From positions 9,162 through 73,161 of the forward strand of contig JBAQUX010000024.1 in the NCBI GenBank assembly GCA_049297775.1: a stretch of 64,000 nucleotides of DNA. Reading direction: 5' to 3'. A program made the translations under genes and the position numbers. The stretch comes from Minisyncoccia bacterium. GTDB lineage: Bacteria > Patescibacteriota > Minisyncoccia > Phycocordibacterales > UBA2100. Shown here in pieces: positions 4,762-59,993 of the stretch (its first letter is position 1; each line of letters starts with the position of its first letter). The notes beneath the pieces are model-generated. The model was not told the DNA's origin and ran no database searches. It saw only the letters and a list, made by a program, of their open reading frames with translations.

Positions 4762-6603
4762 TTAAATTTTCGACGATTCAGCGTCGGCTGACTCCGCGGA
4801 GCTTAAGTCTTGCTTGGCCTTTCGTATTGCCAAAATTTGTGATGGGTCAGAGGTAATAATCTGGTCTTCTGTGTATGAAGCAATTACTTTGATGGCAACG
4901 TGCTTAAGTCCAGCAAAGAATATGCCCTCACCAACATCTGATTCAAGTAGCAGATACTTTTCTTCATCTGAGAGCTTAAATGTCTCCTGCACCAGGTCAA
5001 CAGATGTTGGAGACTGTCGAAGTAAAATTTGAATCGATGAGTTAGTGAGCATGGCTTTGCCATATGGGGACTGCAAAAAGTCGCCTACGTCCTGTGTGAT
5101 AGTTGCTAAACCGAGATAATATTTACGTCCACGTTTTGCAATTCCGTACAAGAATGAAGCCGTGTCCTCAGATTTCATCATCCACCAGGCCTCATCGATA
5201 ATGAGCATGCGTTTGCGCAAGTCTTTGCGAACCATGTTCCAGATATGATGCGTGACTATATACATAGCAACCGGCTTCAGTTCGTCCTCCATATCACGCA
5301 CAGAAAAAACGGTGAGGCGTTTATTCATGTCTACGTTTGTCGGTTTGTTTATGAAGCCAGACCACGTACCGTGAGTGTACTTCGAAAGACGTTGGGTCAG
5401 TGACTCACTACCTTCCATGCCCGACAAGACAAGTTCAAAGTCTGAGAGGAGCGGTGGTTCAATGTTAGTAAAATCAGAATCTGCACTAATATCTTTAAGG
5501 GCATATGTTTCTGAAATTGCTTTATCAATCACTGCATCTTCTTCTGGGTTAAGGCCACCGAGCATAATACGGAATAGTCCGACAAGTGTAATGATGTTTC
5601 CTCTTAAAATATCTGCTGGGTTTTCGTCATCACGTGGTACTGGCAAATCGAATGGGTTGATATGGTGCTCTGATGAGAGTGTAATATTGAAATAGCGTCC
5701 ACCGGTTGTTTCTGCCAAGTATTCATATTCACGTTCAGGGTCGATTACGATTACGTCCGCGTCGAACATGAGTGAGCGAAGAATCTCGAGCTTGGTAAAA
5801 TATGATTTACCTGAACCAGACTTTGCAAAAAGTACAGAGTTGTAGTTTTCTAGAGAGAAGCGGTCGAAGAGTACGAGACTTGAGTTGTGACGGTTAATAC
5901 CGTAAAGAATTCCTCGGTCACTGGTGAGGTCGAAAGATACAAACGGAAACGTGCTTGAGAGTGGTTCAGAGTTAAGTTTTGAGTGTACGGCTATTTGATC
6001 ATCTGCTATGGGCATGACACTTTTAAAACCTTGCTCTTGTTGGAAGAGTGTCGGCTTAATATAGACTAGGCGGGCTTCGAGAATTGAACGTATCTCAGTC
6101 TCTGTTTTATCTAATTCATCAGTAGTTTCACCGTAAATGGTGATATACAGCCCTACTTCAAAGAGTTTTTCTTGAGCTTGCTGAAGTCTGTCACGGAGGT
6201 ATTCAAGGTCAGAATATGCGGTGTCGAGCTGTGGATCGCGCACCAAGCCCTTTTCTTCACGAATTTGGATTTGACTCTCTACTTCCGCAACGCGTCTTTG
6301 GAATTGTCTGAGAACCGTTGTTGTATCAATTGGGTGAATATGAATCGCGGCGTCAAACATCTTGTCCAAGTTGATAATTGGCGCGAACCAACCCGTCGTA
6401 AGAAAGCGTGGGTACGAAATAACGAAAAACGTACGAGCAATCTTGTCACCAATGTTCAGCTGCCGAGGTGTTATTTCAAGAGCAGAAGGTGCAAGTACGT
6501 CTTGTAGTTCCAGAACGCCGCGTGCGTAAATTTCTTGCGGAAGCACAGGCACCGCAGGGCGCTCATCAGTTTTTTGTTTTGAAAAAATATCGAATACTCC
6601 CAT
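4762..6603 (-). CDS. type IV secretion/conjugation ATPase, VirB4/TrbE/CagE family (ATPase domain)
   Basis: 613 aa; Walker A AKSGSGKS, Walker B-like IVIDEAWW, overall VirB4 C-terminal architecture. Confidence 0.85.
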   Translation of the reverse strand: MGVFDIFSKQKTDERPAVPVLPQEIYARGVLELQDVLAPSALEITPRQLNIGDKIARTFFVISYPRFLTTGWFAPIINLDKMFDAAIHIHPIDTTTVLRQFQRRVAEVESQIQIREEKGLVRDPQLDTAYSDLEYLRDRLQQAQEKLFEVGLYITIYGETTDELDKTETEIRSILEARLVYIKPTLFQQEQGFKSVMPIADDQIAVHSKLNSEPLSSTFPFVSFDLTSDRGILYGINRHNSSLVLFDRFSLENYNSVLFAKSGSGKSYFTKLEILRSLMFDADVIVIDPEREYEYLAETTGGRYFNITLSSEHHINPFDLPVPRDDENPADILRGNIITLVGLFRIMLGGLNPEEDAVIDKAISETYALKDISADSDFTNIEPPLLSDFELVLSGMEGSESLTQRLSKYTHGTWSGFINKPTNVDMNKRLTVFSVRDMEDELKPVAMYIVTHHIWNMVRKDLRKRMLIIDEAWWMMKSEDTASFLYGIAKRGRKYYLGLATITQDVGDFLQSPYGKAMLTNSSIQILLRQSPTSVDLVQETFKLSDEEKYLLLESDVGEGIFFAGLKHVAIKVIASYTEDQIITSDPSQILAIRKAKQDLSSAESADAESSKI

Positions 6604-6612
6604 AAATATCTA

Positions 6613-7278
6613 TTATTGTGAACCAGATTTAATTGGGTTGTCTTGCTCTCCAGGGTTGAAAATTCTGTAGAGTAATTCAATCGCTTCCTCTGTGCCTAAT
6701 TGTACTGTACGTACACCTGTTCGGACGAGGCCTTGCTGAACAATTCCCACACGTTGCTCAAGCTGAGAAAGACTTTCTTCAAAAGCTGTTTTTGAGCCAC
6801 TTACTTGTTCACTTGCGCGGCCTTTTTTCGCCCATGGCATGGGGAGGTTTGCGAGCGGTGAGTTTTCGAGGACTGCACCTGCAGGAAGGTACGGCACTAC
6901 TACAAAGAAGTGCTTGGTCATGATGTTAGCGGCCTCTGTAAAGCTCTTAATGAAGTTAATGTATTCCCGAATCTGAATCTTCATAAGTTCATCAAGTGTA
7001 TTTTTAAGTGCGTCTTCAAGTGAAGAAATATAGGGACGAATATCGAGTTTGCGGGATTGGATGAATATCTGTACGTGGAAATCTAATGAGTTGAGAAAGT
7101 TTTGGTATTGCATCAAGAATGCACTCTGCTCATCGTCAGATTTTAGGGCAAAGTTAAGTGATGAAGCCATAAGAATAGCCTTCATACTGCCATCATTTAA
7201 TATAATGACACCGTCACGGACCTCTTTCACTGGTACGAATTCTTGTGCGGGCGTTGCTGATTTAATATCTATTGCCAT
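6613..7278 (-). CDS. VirB4 N-terminal-domain-like protein (split from the ATPase ORF)
   Basis: 221 aa; VKEVRDGVIILNDGSMKAILMASSLNFALKSDDEQ pattern typical of VirB4/TraC N-termini; same frame as the downstream ATPase ORF, separated only by TAA TAG plus 6 nt. Confidence 0.55.
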   Translation of the reverse strand: MAIDIKSATPAQEFVPVKEVRDGVIILNDGSMKAILMASSLNFALKSDDEQSAFLMQYQNFLNSLDFHVQIFIQSRKLDIRPYISSLEDALKNTLDELMKIQIREYINFIKSFTEAANIMTKHFFVVVPYLPAGAVLENSPLANLPMPWAKKGRASEQVSGSKTAFEESLSQLEQRVGIVQQGLVRTGVRTVQLGTEEAIELLYRIFNPGEQDNPIKSGSQ

Positions 7279-7279
7279 A

Positions 7280-7726
7280 TTATCGTTGTTGCTTTTTTAT
7301 ACCCTTCCCTGCCTCGTCTACATATTCATTGATGTCCAAGCTCCAGGAAATTTGTCTGAGTTTACTATCTGAAAGTGAAGGAAGCTCATTCGCATTTTTA
7401 ATTTCGCGGCCATCATTTTGTTGCTCAGTGGTGACTTTTGGTGCGCGATGCTTCCACAAAAATAGTTTACCACGGATAGAATAATAGAATGCATGTTCGA
7501 GCACACTGAGAAACGGTTGGTCATTCACACGATAAAATGCGAGTGCCAAAGAAAATCCTGCAACCGGGAGCACTCCAATAAGTGCAATCGACTTCGGAAG
7601 TAACGCAAAAACAAAATATGAAAGTCCTGCTCCGCCACCCAAGAAAATGAACTGCTTGAACGTAAACGGACCAAATATCTTATCTTCTACGTCAGTAAAT
7701 TGTGGGACAGCAAACTGCATACGCAA
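7280..7726 (-). CDS. two-TM small membrane protein, VirB3/PrgI-like
   Basis: 148 aa with two adjacent hydrophobic helices, located directly upstream of the VirB4 ORFs as VirB3-type proteins are. Confidence 0.5.
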   Translation of the reverse strand: MRMQFAVPQFTDVEDKIFGPFTFKQFIFLGGGAGLSYFVFALLPKSIALIGVLPVAGFSLALAFYRVNDQPFLSVLEHAFYYSIRGKLFLWKHRAPKVTTEQQNDGREIKNANELPSLSDSKLRQISWSLDINEYVDEAGKGIKKQQR

Positions 7727-10678: not shown

Positions 10679-10738
10679 TGAGAATAGTATACCGTATTCT
10701 ACAGTACTCTGCGTATGCGTAGTGCACACAAAACGGGT

Positions 10739-14784: not shown

Positions 14785-15636
14785 TTATCGAGAATTAGTA
14801 GTTGTGGTAAGTGCTTTTACTAACTGTACCCACTGAGTTAGTGGAACGTCTTCAGCGCGCGCAGTACGTGATATACGAACGATATCCAAAGATGCCTGAA
14901 TTGCTTCATCGGTAAACAATGAGCGCAAATTACCAGCGAGCATTTTTCTTCGTGCTTTGAATGCACACTTAACTATCGAAAAAAAATGTTGCTCGTCCAC
15001 AGAATCAAATCTTTGACGTGAAATTGAGCTTATATGAATAATTGCTGAATCTACATTTGGCGGTGGGCTAAATGCGCCTCGTGGCACCGTCTTTATATAT
15101 CTAGGTTCGCCGTACACTTTTACTGACAAAGAAAGAATACTTTCCTTTTTTGAGCGTGCGATTCTTTCAGCGACTTCTTTCTGAACAAGTAGTGTAATAG
15201 ATAGCGGTTGGTGCTTCGCTTCAAAAGCGTCACGAATAATCTCGCCAGTTATGTAATAGGGGATGTTCGCAACAACTTTATATGGTGCACCATGCGCCTG
15301 ACTTTCTGCAGAAAATGTTCGAATGTCACCGTGGATGAGTTCGAAACGTTTTTCCGATATCTCTTGAGTAAAAAGCGTTGTGAGTAGCGGGATAAGATCG
15401 GCATCCTTTTCAATCGCAATCACGTGTGCACCAGTATCAAGTAGTTTTCGTGTAAGCACGCCTGTACCAGGCCCTATTTCGACGACGGTATCCTGCTTCG
15501 TTACTTCTGCCGCCCGTACCATCTCATATAACGCTGAAACTGACGTCAGAAAATGTTGCCCGAGGTGCTTTTTTGCTATGGGTCCTTTTTTTCTACTACG
15601 AGCGTCAGCATTTTTTTTGTGTGGGCGGTGCATCAT
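14785..15636 (-). CDS. rsmA: 16S rRNA (adenine1518/1519-N6)-dimethyltransferase
   Basis: 283 aa; HLGQHFL...VVEIGPGTGVLT SAM-binding motif of KsgA/RsmA. Confidence 0.85.
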   Translation of the reverse strand: MMHRPHKKNADARSRKKGPIAKKHLGQHFLTSVSALYEMVRAAEVTKQDTVVEIGPGTGVLTRKLLDTGAHVIAIEKDADLIPLLTTLFTQEISEKRFELIHGDIRTFSAESQAHGAPYKVVANIPYYITGEIIRDAFEAKHQPLSITLLVQKEVAERIARSKKESILSLSVKVYGEPRYIKTVPRGAFSPPPNVDSAIIHISSISRQRFDSVDEQHFFSIVKCAFKARRKMLAGNLRSLFTDEAIQASLDIVRISRTARAEDVPLTQWVQLVKALTTTTNSR

Positions 15637-28068: not shown

Positions 28069-30603
28069 TTACCAACCAAACCAAGAAAGGATCTTCCCAA
28101 TGATTGATTTTTGGACTGGTGCGTTTGCCGGAGGTGTTACTTCCGTTGTCCCAGGCATATTTTTTGTTGGTGTCGGACTGCCCCGTATTCCTTCAGGGTT
28201 TGTTTGCGGCGCACTATCAGTAGTATCGCGTACCTCTTCGCTTTCCGCGACGTCACTTCCTGTTTCTGGAAGTGATAATTTTGTGTTTCGTTCAAGTGCA
28301 CCAGCGAGTGAAATTTTGGTCTTTGCCTCTGCTAAATCTGCCTCCGAGTTCCAGTATGTTTGGTTACTTTTTTTAAATAATTCTGCGGTGTTTAGACGAC
28401 TTAACGCGTCACGGTACAATTTTATTGCGGTCGGGTTCTTACTCGCGTCAAGTGCATCGGCCACTTCTTTTTTGTATGCCTCAAAATATGCAGGGGTCCA
28501 GTCAGAGAACTTTTTTGGTTCAGGTCCAGCATATGTGCTTTTTTTGAGAGCTGCTTGTTCAAGTGATAGTTCTCCGTACGCAACCTTTAGAGAATTAAGG
28601 AGTGTCGCAGGGGGAGTGTTGCCTGCCATGTCAGTTGCGGCTAATTCTAGTTGACGTGACACAGTGTTCATCGTTTCTGCGGTTGTTGGGTCAGCTCCAA
28701 AGGTATTACCACTTAAATATTCGGAGAGGGACAATAGCTGACTTGCAAGCGTGTCACGTTCCGCACGGCTCAAATCTTGTTTCGGAGCAGTAGGTATCTT
28801 TTTAATTGCTGACTGTAATTGAGTATAAGCAATCTGCAATACTGTTTCTGGTTTCTCTGAGGTAACTCTTCGTTGTGAATTTTGTGCGAGATTGTTTTTG
28901 CTTAAAGCAAAATCTGGATTTTGAATTTCTTGTGCAAATAAATTCTGGAGGACAGTTCGCTCAGACCCCTCAGGCTCAACTACTGGCGGCTTGTTAAGTT
29001 TTGGGTCAGCAGTGGCGAGAATAGGCTCTGCCGGTGCAATTTTTTGTTGTGGTGGAGTCTTCTTTACCGTAAGGACCTCATCAGGTACCTTTTCCTGTTC
29101 TTCCGACTTTTTATCTGGTGCAACGTTTTTAATCTCTGTAACTTTTTTTGCTGAGTCGTTTACAACTTTTTGATAGTCGTATCCACCGCGCTCCATAACC
29201 TCTTCAATTGATGGTGCGTTCAAAATTGCTTTGAGTAAGCGCGATTGCTCTGTCTCGGCCTCTTCCTTCTCTGGTAGCGGTTTTGTTGTTGAGTCGAGTT
29301 TCACCGGTGCATCTATCTTTTTGGTCGTGTCTTTTGGAGTTATTTTTTCAGGCGTTGATTTTTGTGGTAGTTGACCATTCAGTAAATTTTGTGGGTAATT
29401 CTGAGCTACATAAATGTTTTGAATGATTGGGGTACTCTTTTGCGTAGGCTCAGGTTGTCTGTTAAATAATGTATCAAAAAATGATGTGCTACTGCTCGGC
29501 GTATACGCTTTTGGCGCTGTCCCGGTTGGGTTTGCTGGTGCGTAGTTTGAAAGGTTCGAGTTGTATGCATATTTATTCGGATTTTGAGTGTCAGGTGTTT
29601 TTCCGGGTTGAGTCACGGGAGCAACTTGTGCGATAGGTGCTTGTTGTACGGGTGCCTGTTGAGCTATGGGAGCTTGGGGTACTGTTTGCTGTTGAGTACC
29701 TTGTGTAGGTGTCGGTTGTTGTGTTGCGGGAGTACCCGGGTTTGTTGTGACGAAGGGCTCTCGGGCGGCCGCTTGAGGCTGTTGTGTTGCTGGCTGCGTT
29801 GCCGCAGGTACTTTCTCTTTGGTAACTGCTTGAGGCTGTTGTGTTGCTGGCTGTGTCGCTGCCTGTTGAGCAAGCCTATCTGATTCTCTTGCAGATGCAA
29901 TCGGATATTTATCCTGATCCGTAACACATATGACTGCGTCACCCTCATCTTTCGGCGTGGTTGCTTTCACAGTTTGCGCAACAAGTATCTGTGGCTTGAA
30001 AAGGTTTACCTTCCTAATGGGCTCGTCTTTAAATGGACCTCTGTGTATTATGCACGTGACTCCAAGTGCCTCTAGTTCCTTTTTTTTAGATTCAAACTCC
30101 TTTTTTGTTGGATGCCATCCATGCACTATTTCTCTAGAAGGACACATGCCTCTCTTCTTAAAAGCTTCAGCAAGTGTTACCCCTTCTTCATTTGCGCAAT
30201 CTTTTCCAAATTCTTTGCCTATTTCTGCCTCCGTCTTACATTCGTCAATTTTTTTTCTGTCGGGCATATCTGATTTTAAGTTTTCAGGTTTGATTGTTCC
30301 GCCCTTTTCACAAAGATATCCACTTTTAGTACTCCCACCTTGTGGCATTCTTTTACATTCAGCTATTGCTTGCTTATTATTTTCCTGGCATTTCGCATAG
30401 CCTTTATCTTTTGCAGTTGCTGCTAGCGCAGCCTCATCGGTTTGATTTCCCGTTGTTACCGGGATTTCGGCGGGCTTCGGAGACATGGGCGCTGCTGCCT
30501 TCGGAGGGGTGGACATGTTTTGCGCAAAAGCAATATTCTGGGAGATTAAAAGTAGAACAAAAAAAGCGAATACTTTTTTTGTATGTAATTGGTTTAGTGA
30601 CAT
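28069..30603 (-). CDS. large secreted repeat-containing protein (Cys-rich N-domain, Pro/Gln/Thr-rich repeats, helical C-domain)
   Basis: 844 aa; signal peptide; 19 aa tandem repeat AATQPATQQPQA...; QQAPIAQ repeats. Confidence 0.7.
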   Translation of the reverse strand: MSLNQLHTKKVFAFFVLLLISQNIAFAQNMSTPPKAAAPMSPKPAEIPVTTGNQTDEAALAATAKDKGYAKCQENNKQAIAECKRMPQGGSTKSGYLCEKGGTIKPENLKSDMPDRKKIDECKTEAEIGKEFGKDCANEEGVTLAEAFKKRGMCPSREIVHGWHPTKKEFESKKKELEALGVTCIIHRGPFKDEPIRKVNLFKPQILVAQTVKATTPKDEGDAVICVTDQDKYPIASARESDRLAQQAATQPATQQPQAVTKEKVPAATQPATQQPQAAAREPFVTTNPGTPATQQPTPTQGTQQQTVPQAPIAQQAPVQQAPIAQVAPVTQPGKTPDTQNPNKYAYNSNLSNYAPANPTGTAPKAYTPSSSTSFFDTLFNRQPEPTQKSTPIIQNIYVAQNYPQNLLNGQLPQKSTPEKITPKDTTKKIDAPVKLDSTTKPLPEKEEAETEQSRLLKAILNAPSIEEVMERGGYDYQKVVNDSAKKVTEIKNVAPDKKSEEQEKVPDEVLTVKKTPPQQKIAPAEPILATADPKLNKPPVVEPEGSERTVLQNLFAQEIQNPDFALSKNNLAQNSQRRVTSEKPETVLQIAYTQLQSAIKKIPTAPKQDLSRAERDTLASQLLSLSEYLSGNTFGADPTTAETMNTVSRQLELAATDMAGNTPPATLLNSLKVAYGELSLEQAALKKSTYAGPEPKKFSDWTPAYFEAYKKEVADALDASKNPTAIKLYRDALSRLNTAELFKKSNQTYWNSEADLAEAKTKISLAGALERNTKLSLPETGSDVAESEEVRDTTDSAPQTNPEGIRGSPTPTKNMPGTTEVTPPANAPVQKSIIGKILSWFGW
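29771..29884. repeat. two tandem copies of a 57 bp coding repeat inside the 844 aa gene
   Basis: gcttgaggctgttgtgttgctggctg... occurs twice in direct tandem. Confidence 0.7.
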
Positions 30604-35638: not shown

Positions 35639-35709
35639 CGGGGCATAGTATAGCGGTAGTATGCATGCTTTGGGAGCATGAGACCACGGTTCGATTCCGT
35701 GTGCCCCGA
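35639..35709 (+). tRNA. tRNA-Pro (anticodon TGG), C1:G72, CCA not encoded
   Basis: Manual fold: acceptor CGGGGCA/TGCCCCG, anticodon stem CATGC/GCATG with loop TTTGGGA, T-arm CACGG-TTCGATT-CCGTG. Confidence 0.8.
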
Positions 35710-35745
35710 CAAGAATTTGGGTATATTTAGGTAAGAGCAACATGG

Positions 35746-37089
35746 TTGTTCTGTTATACTTATTTTTATATGACTGATTGGTATTATGCTTTATTGAAGA
35801 GCTATTTTCTCGGGTTTACGCCTTTCGCGTATGCGTTCATCGCATTTCTACCGTGGCTTTTTCTTACTATGTTTGTTGCCCCTCGGGTGTTCATAGATGC
35901 GCTTCAGATGGTCTTCTATACGATGCCTCTCTGGGTTCTGTACATTACACCACATACGGTGAAGCATTATTGGATGCACTATATTCAGCATCAGTTTATA
36001 GATGATCCTGCTCAAAAGCCGATTCTCCTTGAATTGCTGATACCAAAGGATGAAATGAAATCACCGCGCGCCATGGAAGTAGTGTTTGAATCGTTGCACT
36101 ACAGCTTGCAAATGAATCCTATTTTCCAGACTCAATTTAAGGGCCATGTGCGACCATGGTTTACGCTCGAAATTGCCTCAACGGAAGGGAAGTTGCGCTT
36201 CTATTTGTGGACATGGGAGAAATTGCGCGACCGTGTGGAAGCAGCATTTTACGGACAATACCCAAACCTTCAAATAATTGAAGCTGATCATGACTACTCA
36301 AAGCGCTATGATTTTGACCTGGATAAACCTGAAATGTGGGGATGTAGTTTTAAGCTCGAGAAAGGCGATGCGTACCCGATTAAGACATACTATGAGTTTG
36401 AGCTCGAGAAGGACCCAAAGGCAGAGCACAGAGTTGATCCTTTTATAACGATGCTTGAAATGATGTCAACAATGGGGAAGCATGAACATATGTGGTTTCA
36501 GTTTTTATTTCAGATGGAGCATACTGATGCGTGGAAGGATGATGTTATGAAGGAGATTGATAGAATATACGAAAGTGCAACCCCAGAACATCCGGGAGCA
36601 AAACCCGGAGATAAGGTGAAAGGGTTTCCGCAATTACGACCACTTCAGTACGAACTCATAAAAGGTATGGAGCGATGCGTCACGAAGCATGCATTTAGGG
36701 TTGGCATACGGGGCATGGTCATTACCGATGCAGGTCACTTCAACTTTGGGCACTCTCAGACGACGCAGCGCATGTTTGGGCAGAACAACGCTCATGAGGG
36801 GAGTGAATACTATAACGTCCTCAAGCTTGATCCAGAGCAGCACCTTGCAGGGTTCGACTGGCCATGGGAAGACTATAAGGGTATTCGACGTAGTGCGCGT
36901 GCACGTAAACTTTTGGATTCGTATCAAAAGCGTTCATATTTTCATCCACCGTACATTATGGACCCTATTATTCTTACAACTGAGGAGCTGGCGACACTGT
37001 TTCACATTCCTGGGGGCGAAAGTCAGGTGCTGGGACTCACCAAGACCGAATCAAAGCGGGGAGCGCCACCACCTAATTTACCTTCATAG
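35746..37089 (+). CDS. membrane-anchored protein of unknown family, paralog A of a tandem pair
   Basis: 447 aa; N-terminal TM helices; shares IPKD..KSP.AMEVVF, GHVRPW, KTY.EF.L.KDPKAE.R.DPF, LKPLQYE, FHPPY and the C-terminal EELAT.FHIPGE...ESKRG.PPPNLP with the next gene. Confidence 0.7.
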   Translation: MFCYTYFYMTDWYYALLKSYFLGFTPFAYAFIAFLPWLFLTMFVAPRVFIDALQMVFYTMPLWVLYITPHTVKHYWMHYIQHQFIDDPAQKPILLELLIPKDEMKSPRAMEVVFESLHYSLQMNPIFQTQFKGHVRPWFTLEIASTEGKLRFYLWTWEKLRDRVEAAFYGQYPNLQIIEADHDYSKRYDFDLDKPEMWGCSFKLEKGDAYPIKTYYEFELEKDPKAEHRVDPFITMLEMMSTMGKHEHMWFQFLFQMEHTDAWKDDVMKEIDRIYESATPEHPGAKPGDKVKGFPQLRPLQYELIKGMERCVTKHAFRVGIRGMVITDAGHFNFGHSQTTQRMFGQNNAHEGSEYYNVLKLDPEQHLAGFDWPWEDYKGIRRSARARKLLDSYQKRSYFHPPYIMDPIILTTEELATLFHIPGGESQVLGLTKTESKRGAPPPNLPS

Positions 37090-37091
37090 CT

Positions 37092-38438
37092 ATGTCAGCA
37101 TCTGCCAACAAAGGTTTTGTTTTCAAAAATCCATTTCAGTGGTTAAAGGATTTTTTGTACAAGTTTCAATTACTTGAAATAACCGCAACAGCACTTACCG
37201 GTGTTGCGGGCATGCTCACTGTTCTTTTTGTTAACTGGCAATTACTTCGTGATGGATTCATCATGTTGTTCTACACATCTCCTTTATGGATTTTGTACCT
37301 TTCCCGCAGGGTCGCGTGGCACTATTGGATACACATGCGCAGGCATGAGTTTATAGATGGTGACAGACAAAAGGGTGCCGTGTATGAAATTCGCATTCCT
37401 AAGGATGTACAAAAGTCACCATTTGCTATGGAGGTTGTATTTAATGCACTCTATATAAAGCCAAGTCTTACAACTGCATTCCAAAGAGATTGGCGTGGTC
37501 ATGTGCGTCCTTGGTGGTCATTCGAAATTGTTTCTGATGGAGGAGAACTTAAATTCTATATTTGGTGCTGGAAGCGTTTTCAGTTTCGTATTGAAGCTGC
37601 GATGTATGCACAATACCCAGGTGTGCAGCTTGTTGAAGTCGAAGATTATGCTGCACAAGTAAAATATGTTCCTGGTGTTAATTTGGTAACGGGTACTAAC
37701 TTTGTTTTAAAAAAGCCTGATACGTATCCTTTGAAAACATATTTCGACTTTGATTTACATAAGGATCCTAAGGCTGAATATCGCATTGACCCATTTGCAG
37801 CAATGATTGAATCTATGTGCGTCACTAAGCCAGGAGAAAAGCTGTGGCTACAAATCCTTGTGCAGTATTCAGAGGATGAAAAGTGGAAGTCGCGTGTTAA
37901 AAAAGCAATCGACGAAATTTACACCAGTAGACAAGTCGAGGTTCCATCAATAGCAAATCCTGATGAATCTACTTTTATGCGACTTGGCTTGAAGCCACTG
38001 CAGTATGAAATGGTAAAATCAATGGAAAGAAGTACAACAAAGAATCACTTTGACGTTGGTTTACGTGCCGTGTATTCTGCGCCTCAAGATATATTTAGAC
38101 GTATTCCGTTCGATAGTATTATGCACGCATTTAAATACTACTCTTCAAGTGGTCCGTACTACAACGCGATTGGTCCATTCGGTGAGTCATGGCTCGCGAA
38201 CTTCGATTTTCCTTGGGAAGATTTTAACAATATTCGTGCAAATAGATTGCGTCATCGCCTCCTCGACGCCTACACGAAGCGTTCCATCTTTCATCCTCCG
38301 TACAAACAGATGACTTCAATTATGACCAGTGAAGAGTTGGCAACTATATTTCACATTCCGGGCGAAGACTCAAAAACTTTGAATCTCACTCGACTCGAAT
38401 CGAAGCGTGGAAATCCACCACCAAATTTGCCATTTTAA
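37092..38438 (+). CDS. membrane-anchored protein of unknown family, paralog B of a tandem pair
   Basis: 448 aa; colinear with paralog A at roughly 35-40 percent identity by eye; 2 nt intergenic gap; no Walker A motif. Confidence 0.7.
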   Translation: MSASANKGFVFKNPFQWLKDFLYKFQLLEITATALTGVAGMLTVLFVNWQLLRDGFIMLFYTSPLWILYLSRRVAWHYWIHMRRHEFIDGDRQKGAVYEIRIPKDVQKSPFAMEVVFNALYIKPSLTTAFQRDWRGHVRPWWSFEIVSDGGELKFYIWCWKRFQFRIEAAMYAQYPGVQLVEVEDYAAQVKYVPGVNLVTGTNFVLKKPDTYPLKTYFDFDLHKDPKAEYRIDPFAAMIESMCVTKPGEKLWLQILVQYSEDEKWKSRVKKAIDEIYTSRQVEVPSIANPDESTFMRLGLKPLQYEMVKSMERSTTKNHFDVGLRAVYSAPQDIFRRIPFDSIMHAFKYYSSSGPYYNAIGPFGESWLANFDFPWEDFNNIRANRLRHRLLDAYTKRSIFHPPYKQMTSIMTSEELATIFHIPGEDSKTLNLTRLESKRGNPPPNLPF

Positions 38439-38446
38439 AAAAATTA

Positions 38447-38469
38447 GCGCCAGGTATTGCTCCTGGCGC
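38447..38469 (-). terminator. rho-independent terminator oriented for the minus strand (gcgccagg-loop-cctggcgc then T7 on the minus strand)
   Basis: 8 bp GC stem; on the minus strand it is followed by TAATTTTTTT; on the plus strand there is no T-run. Confidence 0.5.
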
Positions 38470-38475
38470 CGTAGA

Positions 38476-38688
38476 TCAGAGTGGCCTGATGAGCTCCTGT
38501 TCGAGAAGCCACACCAGATCGCTCGTATCAAGAGGAACGGGTCCGTCGGAGGTTCTGCCTCCATCGGCGTCAATCCAAAGTTGTCGTTGCCTTCGAAGGT
38601 CAAAGCTCCGAGGTGAGTTATCCTCACTCGTCACACTAACCCAAAAAGGAACTACTACTTCGAACCGTTGTGCGCCCTGCGTCTGCAT
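38476..38688 (-). CDS. small GC-rich ORF (70 aa) with strong SD, hypothetical
   Basis: GGGAGA 7 nt upstream of ATG; followed on its own strand by the 38447-38469 terminator; GC content well above genome background. Confidence 0.35.
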   Translation of the reverse strand: MQTQGAQRFEVVVPFWVSVTSEDNSPRSFDLRRQRQLWIDADGGRTSDGPVPLDTSDLVWLLEQELIRPL

Positions 38689-38726
38689 AGCGTGTCTCCC
38701 GTTTGTGCGTTGTATGAGCTCGCAAC

Positions 38727-38771
38727 AAAAAGCCCCCTGTCGCTCGACAGGGGGCTGGTGTGTTATTTTTT
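38727..38771. terminator. 12 bp GC-rich hairpin (agccccctgtcg-ct-cgacagggggct) with flanking A- and T-runs, potentially bidirectional
   Basis: Perfect 12 bp stem; on the minus strand TTTT follows the stem directly, on the plus strand TTTTTT is 10 nt downstream. Confidence 0.5.
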
Positions 38772-38885
38772 GATATGCACAACAATCCTCTACCGAGCAG
38801 GGGTTCTAAGTAGAAGTAGTAGTGTTGCGAATGAATGCATAAAAACACTATATACAATCGTCTTATATTTTGCAAGTATGCTCCT

Positions 38886-38913
38886 TTGACATGGCGTTTG
38901 TCTTCGGTATACT
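38886..38913 (+). promoter_or_regulatory. sigma70-like promoter (TTGACA-16 nt-TATACT) for the ilv leader and ridA-ilvA
   Basis: Consensus -35 with a near-consensus -10 at 16 nt spacing, 13 nt upstream of the leader-peptide ATG. Confidence 0.4.
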
Positions 38914-38925
38914 CGTACGATACTT

Positions 38926-38979
38926 ATGCAGTACGAACGCACAATACAAAATATCGCCATTATTATTACGTCAGCCTGA
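38926..38979 (+). CDS. Ile-rich leader peptide MQYERTIQNIAIIITSA (attenuation leader)
   Basis: 17 codons with 5 Ile including three consecutive ATT codons; ends 39 nt before an intrinsic terminator that precedes ridA-ilvA. Confidence 0.5.
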   Translation: MQYERTIQNIAIIITSA

Positions 38980-39017
38980 TGGAGGTTTCTTTTGTGTCTG
39001 TCCTAAAATAGATACGC

Positions 39018-39044
39018 AAGAGCCCTCCTGAGGGCTCTTTTTAT
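39018..39044 (+). terminator. attenuator terminator (gagccct-cctg-agggctc followed by TTTTTAT)
   Basis: 7 bp GC-rich stem plus T-run 19 nt upstream of the ridA start. Confidence 0.6.
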
Positions 39045-39062
39045 ACACTAAAAAGTTTATAT

Positions 39063-39422
39063 ATGAATCAAAGTATTGTGCCTAAAGTAATGGGTCCATA
39101 TTCGCCATGTGTTATTGCTGGGAACTTGGTTTTTTGCTCAGGTCAGTTGGGAGTTACTGATATGTGTGATGAAAATATTACGAAACAGACAAGGACTGCC
39201 TTAATGAGGGTACAACAAGTACTATCAACAGTAGGATTTTCTTTAGAAAACGTTGTGAAGGTTGAGGTGTACCTTAAAAATATGGATGATTTCATGACGA
39301 TGAATGATGTGTACGCTAGTTTTTTTTCAGGTAGTGTACTGCCTGCGCGTGTCACTGTTGAAGTTGCACGACTACCTAAAGGTGCACTTGTTGAAATTGC
39401 GTGCGTTGCCTTTAAAGCATAA
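39063..39422 (+). CDS. ridA: RidA/YjgF family reactive enamine/imine deaminase
   Basis: 119 aa; typical RidA length and conserved C-terminal region ...PARVTVEVARLPKGALVEI. Confidence 0.8.
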   Translation: MNQSIVPKVMGPYSPCVIAGNLVFCSGQLGVTDMCDENITKQTRTALMRVQQVLSTVGFSLENVVKVEVYLKNMDDFMTMNDVYASFFSGSVLPARVTVEVARLPKGALVEIACVAFKA

Positions 39423-52626: not shown

Positions 52627-54381
52627 GTGGTCATGCATGTTCCAATAGACACCCTTCGACAGTTTTTAACTGATGGAGGTTTGGTACAAAAGAAAAACTT
52701 TGACACCGTCGCTGATGAAGCGGTACAAAAGAATCGCCCTATCGGCGAGTTACTTGTTGAGCACGGTGAAATTTCTGATACAGACTTGCGCAAGGCGTAC
52801 TCACACATTACTGGAGTAACTTTTGTTTCACTACTTGATAAAAAAATTACGTACGAGACACTCTCGATGATTCCTGAGCCAGTTGCGCGACATAGTAATG
52901 TTATCGCAATTGAACAGAATAAGGAGGAGCTTGTTGTCGCGATGCTTGATACTGACGATTTACGTGCAATTGATTTCATTAAGAAAAAAACAGGCCTTAA
53001 AATTATCACTCGCCTTACTGATACAAACTCCATAAAAGAAGCACTCAAGCAGTATCAGCGCTCTCTGAAGGCAGACTTGGGTGATTTAATTAACCAAGAA
53101 GCATCGCAAATAACCACGAGTGTTTCTAAGGAAGGTACTTCTGAAGAAGACCAAGCGCGGGCACTCGCAGACCAAATTCCTGCAGTTAAAGTTGTCGATG
53201 CATTGTTGAAACACGCGGTTACACAAGGTGCGTCTGATATACATATTGAACACCATGAAGAAATGTTGCTTGTTCGGTATCGTATCGACGGTATTTTGCA
53301 TGATGCGATGACCCTTCCTAAGGTTACAGGACCGTCAGTGGTTGCTCGTATAAAGGTCTTATCAAATATGCGTCTCGATGAGAAACGTCTTCCTCAAGAT
53401 GGTCGCTTTAAAATTGATACGGGCGGTGAGAAAGTCGCGTTTCGTGTTTCAACACTTCCGACGCACTATGGAGAAAAGATTGTTATGCGTCTCTTGCGTG
53501 AAGGTGGTGGTGGGTACACTCTCGAAGGCTTGGGGTTTCATGGTATTTCGCTTGAACGCGTGCACGATGCGCTTAAAAAAAGTACAGGCATTATTTTGAT
53601 TACAGGACCTACAGGTTCAGGAAAGACTACGACACTCTATACATTGATAGATATATTAAATACCCCAGAAGTAAATATTTCGACCATTGAAGATCCGGTT
53701 GAATATCAAATGGCGCGCATTAATCAGACACAAGTACGCCCAGAAATTGGTCTTACGTTTTCTGCAGGATTACGCACATTGATGCGTCAAGACCCAGATG
53801 TAATTATGATTGGAGAAATTCGCGATACAGAAACTGCATCGCTTGCGATAAACGCAGCGCTTACGGGGCACTTAGTTCTTGCGACACTACACACAAACTC
53901 TGCTGCAGGTGCGGTGCCTCGACTCATAGATATGGGTGTTGAACCGTTTCTTCTTGTTTCAACATTGCAGGTGGTGATTGCGCAACGCTTGGTGCGCACA
54001 CTCCATAAGGAACATGATCGTGCGACAGTACCACTCTCAGAAATCACATCGCTTGAAAAGCAGGCAGATCTCGGACTCGTGCTCCGAACACTTAAAGATG
54101 AAAAAATCGTACCACCAAATATGACGATGAAAGATATTGAGTTTGGTGTCGCTAAAAAATCAAATGCGTCAGAGACCGGCTTTTCCGGACGTAAATCAAT
54201 CATTGAAGTGTTATCACTGAGTCCATCACTGAAAGATTTAATTGCAAAATCTACGTCTGCAGATGCAATTCATGAGCAGTCACGAAAGGAGGGGATGCTC
54301 ACGATGATGGAAGATGGTATCTACAAAGCAGCTGCGGGGCAAACGACACTGGAAGAAGTGCTTCGTGTTATCAGTGAGTAA
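52627..54381 (+). CDS. pilB: type IV pilus assembly ATPase PilB/GspE family
   Basis: 584 aa; Walker A GPTGSGKTTTLY, Asp box and His box of GspE-type ATPases. Confidence 0.85.
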   Translation: MVMHVPIDTLRQFLTDGGLVQKKNFDTVADEAVQKNRPIGELLVEHGEISDTDLRKAYSHITGVTFVSLLDKKITYETLSMIPEPVARHSNVIAIEQNKEELVVAMLDTDDLRAIDFIKKKTGLKIITRLTDTNSIKEALKQYQRSLKADLGDLINQEASQITTSVSKEGTSEEDQARALADQIPAVKVVDALLKHAVTQGASDIHIEHHEEMLLVRYRIDGILHDAMTLPKVTGPSVVARIKVLSNMRLDEKRLPQDGRFKIDTGGEKVAFRVSTLPTHYGEKIVMRLLREGGGGYTLEGLGFHGISLERVHDALKKSTGIILITGPTGSGKTTTLYTLIDILNTPEVNISTIEDPVEYQMARINQTQVRPEIGLTFSAGLRTLMRQDPDVIMIGEIRDTETASLAINAALTGHLVLATLHTNSAAGAVPRLIDMGVEPFLLVSTLQVVIAQRLVRTLHKEHDRATVPLSEITSLEKQADLGLVLRTLKDEKIVPPNMTMKDIEFGVAKKSNASETGFSGRKSIIEVLSLSPSLKDLIAKSTSADAIHEQSRKEGMLTMMEDGIYKAAAGQTTLEEVLRVISE

Positions 54382-54467: not shown

Positions 54468-55679
54468 ATGAAGTTTACGTACACCGCAGAAAAAGATGGC
54501 GCAAAATATTCTGGCACCATGGATGCCGATGACCGCTATGCTATATATCAAAAAGTTCGTGATGAAGGCGGGAAAGTCCTCACTATTTCCTCAGAAGGTG
54601 GCGGATTCGGTGCAAAATTCAAGGAGTTTTCTGAACGCTTTTCAACAGTTGGTGCTTACGATAAAGTTATCTTTGCTAGAACATTATCTGCCATGCTTAC
54701 CGCAGGACTTCCATTGTCGCGTGCGCTTGCAATATCAGAAAAGCAGGCGCAAAACGACAAGTTAAAAAAGGTGCTTAAAATAGTGAGTGAAGATATTCGT
54801 AAGGGGCAAGGATTTTATGTCGGGCTTTCAAAATTTCCAGCAGTTTTCCCACCACTCTTCGTTGCAATGGCGAAAGCGGGAGAAGAAAGTGGTAACTTGC
54901 CGGGCGCACTCCAAAATATCGCCGAACAGTTGGATAGAGCATATAAGATTCATAAACAGGTGAAAGGAGCGCTTACCTACCCCTCTGTCGTTGTGGTAGC
55001 GATGATAGGTGTGGGAGTTCTTATGATTACCCAAGTGGTGCCGAGTCTTAAACAGACATTTGAAGAGGTCGGGGCAAAGCTCCCTTCTAGTACCAGAGCT
55101 ATTATGAATGTCAGTGATTTCCTCATCGGGCATACGCTCAGTGCGATTCTTATTACTGTAGGGACGGTTGTGTCAGCTGTGATGCTTGCACGTACTGCAC
55201 GCGGGAAAAGAACACTCGACTATATTTTTGTACACATGCCAGTGATTTCTGCCATGGTAAAAGAGGTAAATACTGCGCGTGCATCTCGCACGCTTGCGTC
55301 ACTCGTTGCGTCTGGAGTTGATGTAATCCGCGCGCTTTCAATTACAGAGGAGGTGGTCCAAAACTCACTTTTTAAGGCAGATTTAAAGAAGGCAGAGGAA
55401 ATGGTAACAAAAGGAGAGCCACTTTCACGTGCGTTCGAGGAGGGGCATACTATTTTTCCCTTACTGTTTGGAGAAATGATTGCTGTAGGAGAAGAGACTG
55501 GCGCTATGTCTGACATGCTTAACAAGCTTGCGCTATTTTATGAGGCAGAGGTTGAACAGAAGACCAAAAACCTTTCTACCATCATTGAGCCGCTCCTCAT
55601 GCTCTTCATCGGTGGTGGTGTCGGCTTCTTTGCCATTGCTATCATTTCACCAATTTACGGTATTACACAAAACGTTTAG
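54468..55679 (+). CDS. pilC: type IV pilus platform protein PilC/GspF family
   Basis: 403 aa; two GspF-type repeats with three TM segments. Confidence 0.85.
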   Translation: MKFTYTAEKDGAKYSGTMDADDRYAIYQKVRDEGGKVLTISSEGGGFGAKFKEFSERFSTVGAYDKVIFARTLSAMLTAGLPLSRALAISEKQAQNDKLKKVLKIVSEDIRKGQGFYVGLSKFPAVFPPLFVAMAKAGEESGNLPGALQNIAEQLDRAYKIHKQVKGALTYPSVVVVAMIGVGVLMITQVVPSLKQTFEEVGAKLPSSTRAIMNVSDFLIGHTLSAILITVGTVVSAVMLARTARGKRTLDYIFVHMPVISAMVKEVNTARASRTLASLVASGVDVIRALSITEEVVQNSLFKADLKKAEEMVTKGEPLSRAFEEGHTIFPLLFGEMIAVGEETGAMSDMLNKLALFYEAEVEQKTKNLSTIIEPLLMLFIGGGVGFFAIAIISPIYGITQNV

Positions 55680-57539: not shown

Positions 57540-58178
57540 TTAATTATCTTTTAAATTGCGCAGTGACACTTGTGTCACCACCGATGTAGGTGTTGGTGAC
57601 GATGAAGCGTATGGGTCAATTATAATATTGATTTTGACTAATCGAACATCAGGAATGACGATAGGTGTGGAGAGTGCTGCTTCTGTGCCAGTGTAATTTC
57701 TATCGTAGTATGAGAATATTGGCGTCAGACCATTTGCAATATTATGAATAACCTCGGTTACTACTTCGGTTCCTGTGTCATACGTGAGGGGGCTTCCTGC
57801 AGCTTGTGTAATTCCTTTTTTTAGAATTGTCCCATCAAGAAAATAACGCACTCGTTCTCGCTGTGTGTCAGAGTCAATGTTACTATAGAATGTAAAGGTA
57901 AAATTTCCAGCAGTCTCAATAGGGTATGTGCCGGTACTTGAATCACTTGCGTCGCGTATTTCTCCTGCCATCGGTTTTAACACTTTTCGTGCTTCATTTT
58001 GTGCCTGGATACTTGCGCTCAGAATACGATTCATACTCGACACCCCTTTCATGAATGTGTAAATCCCAGCCATAATCATTGCTGAAACAGCAGCGCTCAC
58101 GAGCACCTCTATTACTGTAAAACCGCTCTCGTTAGTTTTTTTTCTAGTGTACATTTTTCTAGTGTACCATTTGCGCAA
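57540..58178 (-). CDS. type IV pilin/pseudopilin (prepilin-type N-terminal cleavage and methylation domain)
   Basis: Leader MRKWYTRKMYTRKKTNESG then FTVIEVLVSAAV with Glu at +5. Confidence 0.75.
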   Translation of the reverse strand: MRKWYTRKMYTRKKTNESGFTVIEVLVSAAVSAMIMAGIYTFMKGVSSMNRILSASIQAQNEARKVLKPMAGEIRDASDSSTGTYPIETAGNFTFTFYSNIDSDTQRERVRYFLDGTILKKGITQAAGSPLTYDTGTEVVTEVIHNIANGLTPIFSYYDRNYTGTEAALSTPIVIPDVRLVKINIIIDPYASSSPTPTSVVTQVSLRNLKDN

Positions 58179-58199: not shown

Positions 58200-59993
58200 T
58201 TAGTTCGGAACTAAGGTTACTGTTTGCGTTTTTTCGTTTACTGACATAGCGACAGTAATAGTTTGAGATGCATAGCCTGTTTTTGAAACTGTGAGTGTAT
58301 GGTTTCCGCTGCCACGGCCGGTAAACAGTACTTGCCCTGGAGGGATGCACGACGAAGTATACGTGAAGGAGATATCAGAAATAGTTGGTGTGTACGCAGA
58401 GTTACTTGTTTGTAACAATACTTTATAACGTAAGTACTGGTCACCATCATGGACACTTGCAATACTTGTCCCAGGAGTTGTGTAGTATGTGCCTGAAGTA
58501 CCGTCAGGACCCTTAAAATCCCATGTTGCATTGTCGTTATTCGTTGCGATTTGAAAACGGACAGGGTTTGTTCCCGTTTGAGCCGGTTGTGTTGAGGGAG
58601 ACCATGAGAGCGTCTGGTAATCATTTGCAGAGCCGGTGTCAAAGGTAGAAGACGTTAAATCTCCAGAGGCAACATAGCTCCCTGAGACGCTTAGTAATTT
58701 TAAATCACCGGCAGGGTTGTTAATAGCAATATTATTGTCCTGAGAAAAATATTTTGTGATGTCAGTAAACGTCGCTTGTCCCGAGCCTCCTGACCAGCTT
58801 GTCTGGTTCGTTGTGCCGAGGCCAGTCGTCTTTGTTACATCATACCCTCCTTTTCTAAGCCTCACTGATGCATCAGAAAGAGGGAGGCCTGTAGTACCTG
58901 AAACGACGGTTACTAATAAGTTTCTATCTACGCGAGGAGCAAGTATGACACGAAGATCGGTACTTGTATTAGGGCTTACGAGAGTTCCCATAAGTGGGAT
59001 AGTGCCTGCTATGGTGTAACTGGTGTCCGCAAGTGTCGCAGTGTACGTGTCCCATTCTATGGGCGTCAGAGTATTGAGGCCACTTCCTCCAGAGTTTAAA
59101 TTTTGGTTGTATTTGTATACGGTTGGCGTGGTGCCAATAATTTTTGCGCCCTTGAGGTTGTACGCAATGGAAGGAATCGCAATACACGCAGAGTCACTGG
59201 TGCGTACATTAAGCGTACTCGTGCGATCAATTGCGAAACTTACCTGCGTTGTGTTTGACGAGGTAATCGTTGAGTGCGGTTTTACTGGGTTCGGGTTACC
59301 GGCTGCGCCCACGGTAAGTGTTTGGTCAGTCGAGTAGCCACTTTTCGTGACAGATACTTGGTAGAGCTGTGTCGCAGGGGGAAGGCCAAGAATTCTGAGT
59401 TCACCCAGTGAATCTGTCGTGTCGTCTACAGTTATAGTTGGGCCTGTTGCAGCATTTTGCATATGCACATTCGCACCTGCCAATGCAGTGCCTGTAGCGT
59501 CAAATGCACGAATGAGGAGTAAGCCGTTTGTGGTCGCGGTTTCAATTTCAGGAGGGGCGATACGAGCGGTGCTCGAGATTAAGTAGGGGTTGCTGCACGA
59601 TGTGCACGTAACTTGGACCTCAACAAGCTTATAATCAATTGGTGCGAGGTCATCAGGAGCGCCATCAATGACACCATCAAAAGGATCGTCAATATTTCGC
59701 ACGATTGTATTAATTGTGTAAGTTGAGCCACCGCGAGAGATACTTTCTGTACCAAGAATAAGACCTGCGGGTACACCGCTTACAATCCCAACACTGTCAT
59801 ACGGTAAATTATTTATAATTTCAATTTTTTCGTTAGCGAGTGCAGATTGAGTCAATCGTGAGCGTGATACGGCTATCGCCTTCATCATAACGGTGTACCC
59901 ACTAAAGAGTGTCATGAACATGCCAAGTAATGCCATGGCAATAAGGGACTCTACCAGAGAAAAGCCGTTTTCGCGGTGCGTACTATTTTTCAC
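58200..59993 (-). CDS. large prepilin-type protein (minor pilin or tip-adhesin-like)
   Basis: 597 aa; MKNSTHRENG then FSLVESLIAMALL with Glu at +5; long Thr/Ser-rich beta-type C-domain. Confidence 0.7.
   Translation of the reverse strand: MKNSTHRENGFSLVESLIAMALLGMFMTLFSGYTVMMKAIAVSRSRLTQSALANEKIEIINNLPYDSVGIVSGVPAGLILGTESISRGGSTYTINTIVRNIDDPFDGVIDGAPDDLAPIDYKLVEVQVTCTSCSNPYLISSTARIAPPEIETATTNGLLLIRAFDATGTALAGANVHMQNAATGPTITVDDTTDSLGELRILGLPPATQLYQVSVTKSGYSTDQTLTVGAAGNPNPVKPHSTITSSNTTQVSFAIDRTSTLNVRTSDSACIAIPSIAYNLKGAKIIGTTPTVYKYNQNLNSGGSGLNTLTPIEWDTYTATLADTSYTIAGTIPLMGTLVSPNTSTDLRVILAPRVDRNLLVTVVSGTTGLPLSDASVRLRKGGYDVTKTTGLGTTNQTSWSGGSGQATFTDITKYFSQDNNIAINNPAGDLKLLSVSGSYVASGDLTSSTFDTGSANDYQTLSWSPSTQPAQTGTNPVRFQIATNNDNATWDFKGPDGTSGTYYTTPGTSIASVHDGDQYLRYKVLLQTSNSAYTPTISDISFTYTSSCIPPGQVLFTGRGSGNHTLTVSKTGYASQTITVAMSVNEKTQTVTLVPN

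Follow-up and report, generated by a model that had tools for sequence, protein, structure and literature searches.

Tandem DUF8128 membrane proteins of a Minisyncoccia bacterium resemble the anchoring half of type IV secretion ATPases

Two co-directional genes, here called A and B, lie back to back in the window, which is the whole 64,000-nucleotide stretch of contig JBAQUX010000024.1 (Minisyncoccia bacterium) that was analysed. As shown in Table 1, they encode membrane proteins of similar length, and a gap of only 2 nt (TAG-ct-ATG) separates them. The start of A follows the first ATG, in agreement with public gene calls; with the in-frame TTG at 35746 the protein would be 447 aa long (ORF A, 35746..37089, forward strand). 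B is 100% identical to the NCBI MAG protein WAX38_03900 (Minisyncoccia bacterium). A and B share 44% identity across 410 colinear residues (BLASTP, E 6e-122), a likeness in sequence that is far above chance expectation. On one side the pair is flanked by tRNA-Pro and on the other by ridA-ilvA, with a convergent 70-aa ORF (38476-38688, reverse strand) whose GC content is 54% compared with 44% for the window. The initial annotation described this arrangement correctly, both the colinear paralogs 2 nt apart and their place between tRNA-Pro and a small GC-rich gene. The GC-rich hairpin directly after the B stop codon, which has an A-run upstream and is common to the convergent ORF, is likely a bidirectional terminator that closes the A-B transcription unit. 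Rfam finds four tRNAs and no other RNA above threshold in the window; 3' of B it gives no RNA gene, only sub-threshold leader matches in 38430-39070.

Table 1. Positions of the A/B genes, their protein segments and the neighbouring or related features in the window
Feature	Position	Strand	Remarks
Paralog A	35770..37089	+	439 aa from first ATG; DUF8128 family, no ATPase
A N-terminal membrane hairpin	35806..35961	+	about residues 13-64; from hydropathy and alignment to the B hairpin
A C-terminal tail ...LTKTESKRGAPPPNLPS	37039..37086	+	
Paralog B	37092..38438	+	448 aa; DUF8128 family, no ATPase
B N-terminal membrane hairpin	37173..37304	+	about residues 28-71; from AlphaFold helices and hydropathy
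B alpha/beta domain, inferred cytoplasmic	37359..38366	+	about residues 90-425; predicted fold like the VirB4 N-terminal domain
B C-terminal tail ...LTRLESKRGNPPPNLPF	38388..38435	+	aligns with the linker before Walker A in fused relatives
tRNA-Pro (UGG)	35639..35710	+	60 nt 5' of A; context only
GC-rich hairpin	38446..38470		directly 3' of the B stop
T4SS ATPase of the window, split	4762..7278	-	TrsD-like N-terminal fragment 6613-7278 and VirB4 4762-6603; context, candidate partner only; PrgI at 7280-7726

By sequence, A and B are members of Pfam PF26449 (DUF8128), a family that is catalogued but functionally uncharacterised. Precomputed Pfam matches place B in it at E <= 1e-5 and A at the 'weak' level (<= 1e-3). 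A family profile built from 59 members scores the two at 529-539 bits (A 529), and each retains 45 or more of the 47 residues conserved across the family. The initial annotation held that it would be overturned by a clear HMM match to a family already characterised; a family is indeed hit, but it is not a characterised one. Scans of A and B with Pfam-A, NCBIfam, and PADLOC give no match. The absence of Pfam families reflects the library version, since the Pfam-A scanned does not contain the DUF8128 model and the known members P0093 and P0028 likewise go without a DUF8128 match. The sole PHROGs match is phrog_5156, a profile of 824 positions with no known function, which is probably the fused form described below. 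A PDB sequence search with A and B gives no match, and a literature search found no paper mentioning DUF8128 and no experimentally characterised member. DUF8128 is a large family, encountered in this analysis nearly exclusively in Patescibacteria, and its profile matches 3,848 clusters (50% identity). A and B have the features of the stand-alone subfamily, namely a length of about 400-470 aa, an N-terminal anchor, and an end at [AP]PxNLP plus one residue. A phage origin was considered and rejected, with no tblastn match in 50,697 phage records and a relative on only one IMG/VR contig.

Each protein begins with a membrane anchor, as the initial annotation had noted in proposing N-terminal transmembrane helices. 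Hydropathy scoring alone gives one or two overlapping segments in this region; the two-helix hairpin is derived from the AlphaFold helices and the charge distribution. In the B model (AF2, pLDDT 90.1) the helices span residues 29-47 and 49-88 (49-61 and 63-88). The basic segment RRVAWHYWIHMRRHE follows the hairpin of B and would place its soluble domain in the cytoplasm. The flanking positive charges suggest the same orientation, as does the fusion of the domain to a cytoplasmic ATPase in relatives. The large soluble domain with conserved blocks, another feature first noticed in the initial annotation, is found in both proteins as an alpha/beta domain of about 350 residues, and in B it ends with the family motif EELATIFHxPG. 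The conserved patches of DUF8128 are E145, D185-Y186, R325, E414, and H421. The Walker A motif is absent from A and B, again as first described, and with it the catalytic P-loop is missing.

Homology links A and B to the N-terminal half of the 'T4CP' ATPases that abound in Patescibacteria; in those proteins DUF8128 is fused to a VirD4-type ATPase, for a length of about 780 aa (e.g., P0093 and P0261). These T4CPs have, like A and B, an N-terminal anchor followed by DUF8128 (24-27% identity; 168 bits with the DUF8128 family HMM). They also have in common with A and B the motif EELATIFHxP and, at the junction, the basic motif [AP]P..[LIV]P. While the fused proteins continue from the junction motif into a P-loop and an all-alpha ATPase part, A and B stop one residue past it. 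The gene neighbourhoods of the fused and stand-alone forms also differ. Of the hallmarks of type IV coupling proteins (VirD4/TrwB/TraD), A and B have the N-terminal TM anchor; the nucleotide-binding and all-alpha domains are absent from both.

The tails of A and B read ...ESKRGAPPPNLPS and ...ESKRGNPPPNLPF, and the proteins end in APPPNLPS and NPPPNLPF, respectively. Across the family the consensus reads R-[IV]-x-S-[KR]-[KR]-x-E-[AP]-P-x-N-L-P-phi-COOH. The PPPNLP motif at the extreme C-terminus, reported earlier as common to A and B, fits the pattern of the subfamily: 249 of 315 unique stand-alone sequences end, in the same register, one residue past [AP]PxNLP. In alignments the A/B tail matches the inter-domain linker, that is, the fusion junction, of the fused ATPase relatives. 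A docking role, one of two roles that the initial annotation proposed for the conserved tail, is plausible. Retention of the junction motif is also easier to explain if stand-alone DUF8128 still contacts an ATPase-type partner.

A second relationship is seen at the level of predicted structure. The predicted fold of B matches the N-terminal domain of VirB4 (TrwK of plasmid R388; PDB 7o42, 7o43, 8rtb, and 8rtd), although sequence identity is only 6-8%. VirB4 has a C-terminal ATPase and is encoded inside T4SS loci, whereas neither holds for A and B: they have no Walker A and no ATPase family matches, and they lie about 29 kb away from the virB4 of the window. Comparing the family profile with the VirB4 and TrsD-like ORFs of the window by hhalign gives a probability of 0.4 and no profile similarity. 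With the PF26449 matches, the homology to the N-terminal half of T4CPs, and this VirB4-like fold, the earlier statement that A and B have no recognisable family no longer stands. Homologs of TrsD (pGO1), an ATPase-less polypeptide related to the VirB4 N-terminus, are abundant in Patescibacteria (PMC12102498). A and B are also ATPase-less and related in concept to the VirB4 N-terminal part. However, TrsD is about 200 aa and directly beside virB4, while DUF8128 is about 440 aa, has its own hairpin and conserved tail, and is away from virB4. NCBIfam gives no match to the TrsD/TraD family (NF041427) in A or B, and hhalign gives no similarity between DUF8128 and the TrsD-like protein of the window, which is a separate ORF (6613-7278) that, like TrsD, lies directly beside virB4. 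In pIP501, TraI and TraJ provide another example, where a separate membrane anchor is proposed for an anchor-less coupling protein (PMC13037476). Here too a T4CP anchor and its ATPase are separate polypeptides, a likeness of concept; TraI and TraJ are encoded side by side on a plasmid, while DUF8128 has no adjoining ATPase gene. EccE of mycobacterial ESX type VII secretion (PDB 6lar_G, 7b9f_E, and 6umm_A) gives a much weaker, partial fold match of 115-163 residues with no sequence similarity, and no ESX/type VII signatures or components are present among the window genes scanned.

These comparisons favour, with a probability of roughly 0.55, the reading that A and B serve a T4SS-class ATPase as a scaffold or anchor in the membrane and have no catalytic role themselves. 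Elsewhere in Patescibacteria the tail is the exact point at which this module is joined to a P-loop ATPase of the VirD4/VirB4 type. A and B are therefore ATPase-less, separately encoded forms of the N-terminal module that anchors a T4SS-class ATPase in the membrane. We infer that they oligomerise and that their partner is an ATPase of this class: they would organise or recruit, in trans, a hexameric ATPase of the VirB4/VirD4 class, which the C-terminal tail would contact. A and B may form a hetero-oligomer in the window lineage, and a homo-oligomer may take its place where the gene is single-copy.

A related but improbable reading is that of a split coupling protein, in which A and B are the membrane halves and a dedicated soluble ATPase half, encoded by a separate gene elsewhere, is rejoined through the linker or tail. 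The ends of A and B coincide exactly with the domain junction in the fused proteins, the junction motif is kept, and the window itself contains a naturally split VirB4 (Table 1). VirD4-type T4CPs are also far from virB4 in Paceibacteria genomes, and TraI/TraJ of pIP501 is a precedent (PMC13037476). Split genes are, however, normally adjacent, as TrsD and VirB4 are, and no ATPase half exists within 10 kb in 80 genomes. Neither phmmer nor a 46-sequence ATPase HMM finds one among all ORFs of 88 loci and the window; the two marginal matches are ABC transporters. Furthermore, no stand-alone, anchor-less ATPase half is identified, and the A/B tandem would give two anchors per motor.

The genomic context raises another possibility, equally doubtful, that after loss of its motor the protein has been exapted for an ATPase-independent structural role in the envelope or cell division (cell wall, divisome) unrelated to type IV secretion. 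In most Paceibacteria the stand-alone gene is part of a housekeeping array of LeuRS, a sigma-like gene, DUF8128, and MltG (YceG/MltG). This array is co-directional and strongly conserved, at position -1 in 64 and at +1 in 65 of about 80 loci. In three distant genomes the fused form has a XerC/D-type recombinase and DivIC as neighbours. According to published data (PMC12102498), the Patescibacteria T4CP usually lies at a distance from virB4, is not essential to the epibiotic growth of S. epibionticum, and has possibly been exapted. But in tiny, gene-dense genomes housekeeping synteny says little about function, and the window lineage does without it, its pair lying between tRNA-Pro and ridA-ilvA. 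Strict retention of the ATPase-junction motif fits continued contact with an ATPase-type partner better.

The initial annotation regarded the pair as an undescribed two-gene system with the PPPNLP tail as a possible secretion signal. The conserved extreme C-terminal motif and the lack of an experimentally characterised DUF8128 member agree with this idea, which is now largely refuted and very improbable. Each of the 80 other species-level genomes examined has one copy of the stand-alone gene, placed in a housekeeping array, so it is not a two-gene or multi-gene system; the family is, moreover, already PF26449. A and B are thus an uncharacterised member of a catalogued family and no new kind of system. 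A secretion signal is unlikely because the protein is tethered by a membrane hairpin, its domain is inferred to be cytoplasmic, and the tail corresponds to the linker of fused ATPases.

A relative (locus L003/L004) has the same A-type/B-type pair with a 2-nt gap, and its B ortholog is 56% identical to that of the window. A- and B-type genes also occur on one contig in two further metagenomic assemblies, making four distinct genomes with that of the window, and their orthologs form separate clades. The tandem duplication is old, yet confined to this lineage. An assembly artefact, which the initial annotation had named as a possible refutation, or a recent decaying duplication has nothing but the tandem arrangement in its favour and is refuted by the same pair in these genomes, the 44% identity of the copies, and the family-conserved residues kept in both.

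Epibiotic life of Patescibacteria depends on envelope machines such as T4SS and type IV pili. Published surveys list thousands of Patescibacteria 'T4CP' homologs that are far from virB4 and whose role is not known. Here, these T4CPs are seen to carry an N-terminal DUF8128 domain with a predicted VirB4-like fold. In a very large sister group that prevails in Paceibacteria, the motor is gone while the junction peptide is tightly constrained, and one lineage keeps two diverged copies in tandem. If the scaffold reading is right, A and B would join TrsD/VirB4 and TraI/TraJ as a third case in which the membrane module of a T4SS ATPase exists as a separate protein. What the orphan coupling-protein lineage does becomes testable through the A/B pair, its tail peptide, and the ATPases that are candidate partners.

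A bolder and rather unlikely proposal is that stand-alone DUF8128 is a core Patescibacteria-specific membrane platform outside conjugation-type secretion. Its tail, ...[KR][KR]xE[AP]PxNLP-phi-COOH, would be a short linear docking motif not recognised before, with a logic like that of the C-terminal tails of SSB and FtsZ. It would bring a cytoplasmic partner to the membrane close to the machinery of the cell wall or of division, at which the MltG, DivIC, and XerC neighbourhoods hint. In the window lineage A and B would then pair as an obligate heterodimer, a motorless mimic of the inner/outer VirB4 dimer. Charge complementarity (-7/+9 in the window pair) was considered as evidence for an A-B heterodimer and discarded, the pattern being inconsistent across clades. 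That the fused protein stands in for a missing FtsK is unsupported: an FtsK is mentioned in TM7x papers, and TcpA/FtsK-type 't4cp2' matches are present in Paceibacteria genomes (Table S3, PMC12102498).

The two genes of the pair, A and the downstream B, are separated by 2 nt (TAG-ct-ATG) and encode colinear proteins with 44% identity and 60% positives over 410 residues (BLASTP, E 6e-122). As the initial annotation described, these are tandem paralogs lacking a Walker A motif and placed between tRNA-Pro and a convergent small GC-rich ORF. In public gene calls for an identical metagenomic contig, A starts at the ATG at 35770 and has 439 aa. The C-terminal tails are ESKRGAPPPNLPS in A and ESKRGNPPPNLPF in B. 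The window derives from a Patescibacteria MAG, and an NCBI protein of a 'Minisyncoccia bacterium' matches B with 100% identity.

Features of the window around the gene pair and in the T4SS and type IV pilus regions
Feature	Position	Strand	Remarks
rnpA, yidC, jag	363-1907
VirB2-like pilin	1938-2348
VirB4	4762-6603	-	613 aa; matches positions 185-733 of CD1110 VirB4 model, E 4e-108
TrsD-like ORF	6613-7278	-	221 aa; matches VirB4 models over roughly their first 115-230 positions, and TrsD model
PrgI/VirB3	7280-7726
VirB6-like protein	8351-10729		8-TM
ksgA	14785-15636
tRNA-Pro(UGG)	60 nt upstream of A
Paralog A ORF	35746-37089	+	447 aa, six-frame ORF list
Paralog B ORF	37092-38438	+	448 aa, six-frame ORF list
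GC-rich hairpin	38446-38470		directly after B stop codon; common to convergent 70-aa ORF
Convergent 70-aa ORF	38476-38688	-	54% GC vs 44% for window
Second hairpin	38731-38756
sigma70-type promoter	38886-38913		near-consensus, 11/12
Hairpin and T-run	~39020-39046		immediately 5' of ridA (39063)
PilB-like ATPase	52627-54381		type IV pilus cluster
PilC-like platform	54468-55679		type IV pilus cluster
Prepilin-type N-methylation-motif protein	57540-58178
Prepilin-type N-methylation-motif protein	58200-59993		with CarboxypepD_reg domains

A and B are members of the DUF8128 family (Pfam PF26449). Precomputed PF26449 matches in a large protein database include B, A (weakly), and most of 93 homologs. 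Local scans of A and B against Pfam-A, NCBIfam, and PADLOC give no match; the same Pfam copy also misses the known members P0093 and P0028, so it evidently lacks the DUF8128 model. Of the 47 family positions with a conservation of 85% or more, each paralog retains at least 45. An exhaustive profile search finds 3,848 representative clusters, of which 1,238 lie below 1e-30; the total probably includes fused forms too. The best 150 of these clusters are all 336-500 aa and are matched up to position 428-429 of the 430-position profile, indicating that the proteins genuinely terminate at the tail. Named sources are Kaiser-, Taylor-, Campbell-, Zambryski-, Vogel-, and Nomurabacteria, Paceibacteria/Paceibacterota, and Minisyncoccia; as labeled in the database, one contig is Thermodesulfobacteriota and several are 'uncultured Saccharibacteria'. 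A full-text search for 'DUF8128' returns no paper, and the literature searched holds no description of the family, its VirB4-like fold, or the tail motif.

In P0093 (784 aa), the most distant match of B, a P-loop ATPase follows the DUF8128 domain. A search with P0093 finds more than 7,800 proteins. The best 120 (730-805 aa, 61-90% identical; Microgenomates, Gottesman- and Beckwithbacteria) carry PF26449 together with TrwB_AAD_bind, DUF87, TraG-D_C, or T4SS-DNA_transf, as also confirmed locally. Their names include 'type IV secretion system DNA-binding domain-containing', 'TraM recognition domain-containing', and 'type IV secretory system conjugative DNA transfer family' protein. A and B are homologous to the N-terminal module of such Patescibacteria T4CP-like ATPases; both are anchored in the membrane, lack the ATPase part, and have a strongly constrained C-terminal junction peptide. 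Of 315 unique stand-alone sequences, 282 carry [AP]Px[ND][LIV]P within their final 25 residues, and 249 end exactly one residue past it (consensus R-[IV]-x-S-[KR]-[KR]-x-E-[AP]-P-x-N-L-P-phi-COOH). The tail is thus an inter-domain junction kept from a T4SS-class ATPase, in fixed register to the free C-terminus. This fits a docking peptide, one of the two roles first proposed for the tail, and speaks against the other, a secretion signal.

In the confident AlphaFold2 model of B (59-sequence alignment; mean pLDDT 90.1, pTM 0.87), N-terminal helices span 29-47, 49-61, and 63-88 and precede an alpha/beta domain. Hydropathy and the charge distribution (the N-terminus is positive overall, the short loop neutral, and the stretch RRVAWHYWIHMRRHE behind the second helix basic) indicate a membrane hairpin of N-in/C-in topology with a cytoplasmic soluble domain, an orientation that also fits the ATPase fusion in relatives. 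Structures of the ATPase domain only (such as 4ag5, TrwB, HerA, and FtsK), which dominate the fold search with a fused relative, are absent from both fold-match lists for B. What is matched is thus the N-terminal domain of VirB4, which the predicted fold of B resembles. The VirB4 relationship rests on this predicted fold, since no sequence similarity to the window's own VirB4 and TrsD-like proteins is detectable (hhalign probability 0.4). A and B differ from the VirB4 and T4CP families in lacking their defining ATPase feature, and they match neither the sequence nor the context of TrsD or EccE. The description that suits them best is that of a free-standing N-terminal module of a T4SS-class ATPase.

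In VirB4, the N-terminal domain joins both protomers of each dimer, is membrane-embedded, and contacts VirB3 and VirB8 (PMC12857230). TraI is proposed as the membrane anchor of the T4CP TraJ (PMC13037476). By analogy with these and with TrsD, A and B probably serve a VirB4/VirD4-class ATPase as membrane scaffolds or anchors that are themselves non-catalytic (probability about 0.55).

The partner ATPase could also be the other half of a true split T4CP, encoded far away. No T4CP- or VirB4-type ATPase is found within ±10 kb of single-copy DUF8128 genes. It is reported that 2,918 Patescibacteria genomes carry 5,713 VirD4-type T4CPs, only 148 of them near virB4 (PMC12102498). In the sampled part of Table S3 of that study, four of four Paceibacteria genomes have t4cp1 matches away from virB4, so that, as far as this sample goes, the class carrying the stand-alone proteins has such ATPases available in trans. 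We regard a true split as unlikely.

An exapted, ATPase-independent role in the envelope or division is suggested by MltG, DivIC, and XerC neighborhoods; it is an improbable reading. In S. epibionticum, the T4CP is reported as non-essential, and possible exaptation has been suggested (PMC12102498). In other genomes, the single-copy gene is flanked co-directionally by genes for a sigma70_r4/HARE-HTH protein at -1 (64 loci), LeuRS at -2 (46 loci), and YceG/MltG at +1 (65 loci). The Paceibacteria array (loci L005-L088), DUF5671 membrane protein, LeuRS, sigma70_r4/HARE-HTH, DUF8128, YceG/MltG, and MnmA, is co-directional and very stable. The sigma-like HARE-HTH protein (345 aa), itself uncharacterized, nearly always accompanies DUF8128 directly upstream. 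The fused form lies in another conserved array: DUF5667, NrdR/RNR, the fusion, a XerC/D-type recombinase, and DivIC.

In the window, the pair is flanked by UPF0102 and tRNA-Pro on one side and ridA-ilvA on the other, with an ECF-type sigma factor and DUF5667 beyond. About 21 kb away is a canonical origin-proximal Patescibacteria T4SS, flanked by rnpA-yidC-jag and ksgA, whose layout agrees with the published one (PMC12102498). Its VirB4 is naturally split into the TrsD-like ORF and the 613-aa protein. Type IV pilus genes span 52.6-60 kb. An 844-aa ORF at 28069-30603 (-) has no Pfam match, and strand composition around it is unusual (GC skew +0.19 and AT skew -0.40 at 29001-30000).

The initial annotation saw in the pair an undescribed system with a secretion signal. 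This is very unlikely; DUF8128 is already catalogued, and the pair is not a new system.

In a neighbor-joining tree, A types (A, P0011, P0012-16, and the upstream gene of locus L003) and B types (B, P0002, P0003, and P0005-8) form separate clades. Four distinct genomes have both types on one contig (the window with its identical contig L001, L003/L004, the P0002 and P0011 contig, and the P0007 and P0015 contig), which leaves the misassembly once considered a negligible probability. A single DUF8128 copy is found within ±10 kb in 80 of the 80 best loci in a scan of species-representative genomes. The duplication is thus ancient, yet confined to this sub-lineage. The gap is again 2 nt in L003, although its B ortholog shares just 56% identity with B; this conserved spacing suggests translational coupling. 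Together with the long retention of both paralogs, it points to a possible A-B hetero-oligomer, for which charge complementarity between A and B gives no consistent support.

The convergent 70-aa ORF has no Pfam match and no homolog in 88 related loci except the identical contig. With the DUF8128 pair it forms no conserved unit, and it may not be a genuine gene. The 620-nt gap 3' of B (38440-39062) contains two strong bidirectional hairpins and the promoter and T-run listed in the table. Rfam gives only sub-threshold amino-acid-leader matches in this gap; the hairpin, T-run, and promoter region before ridA could serve ridA-ilvA as an attenuator or leader.
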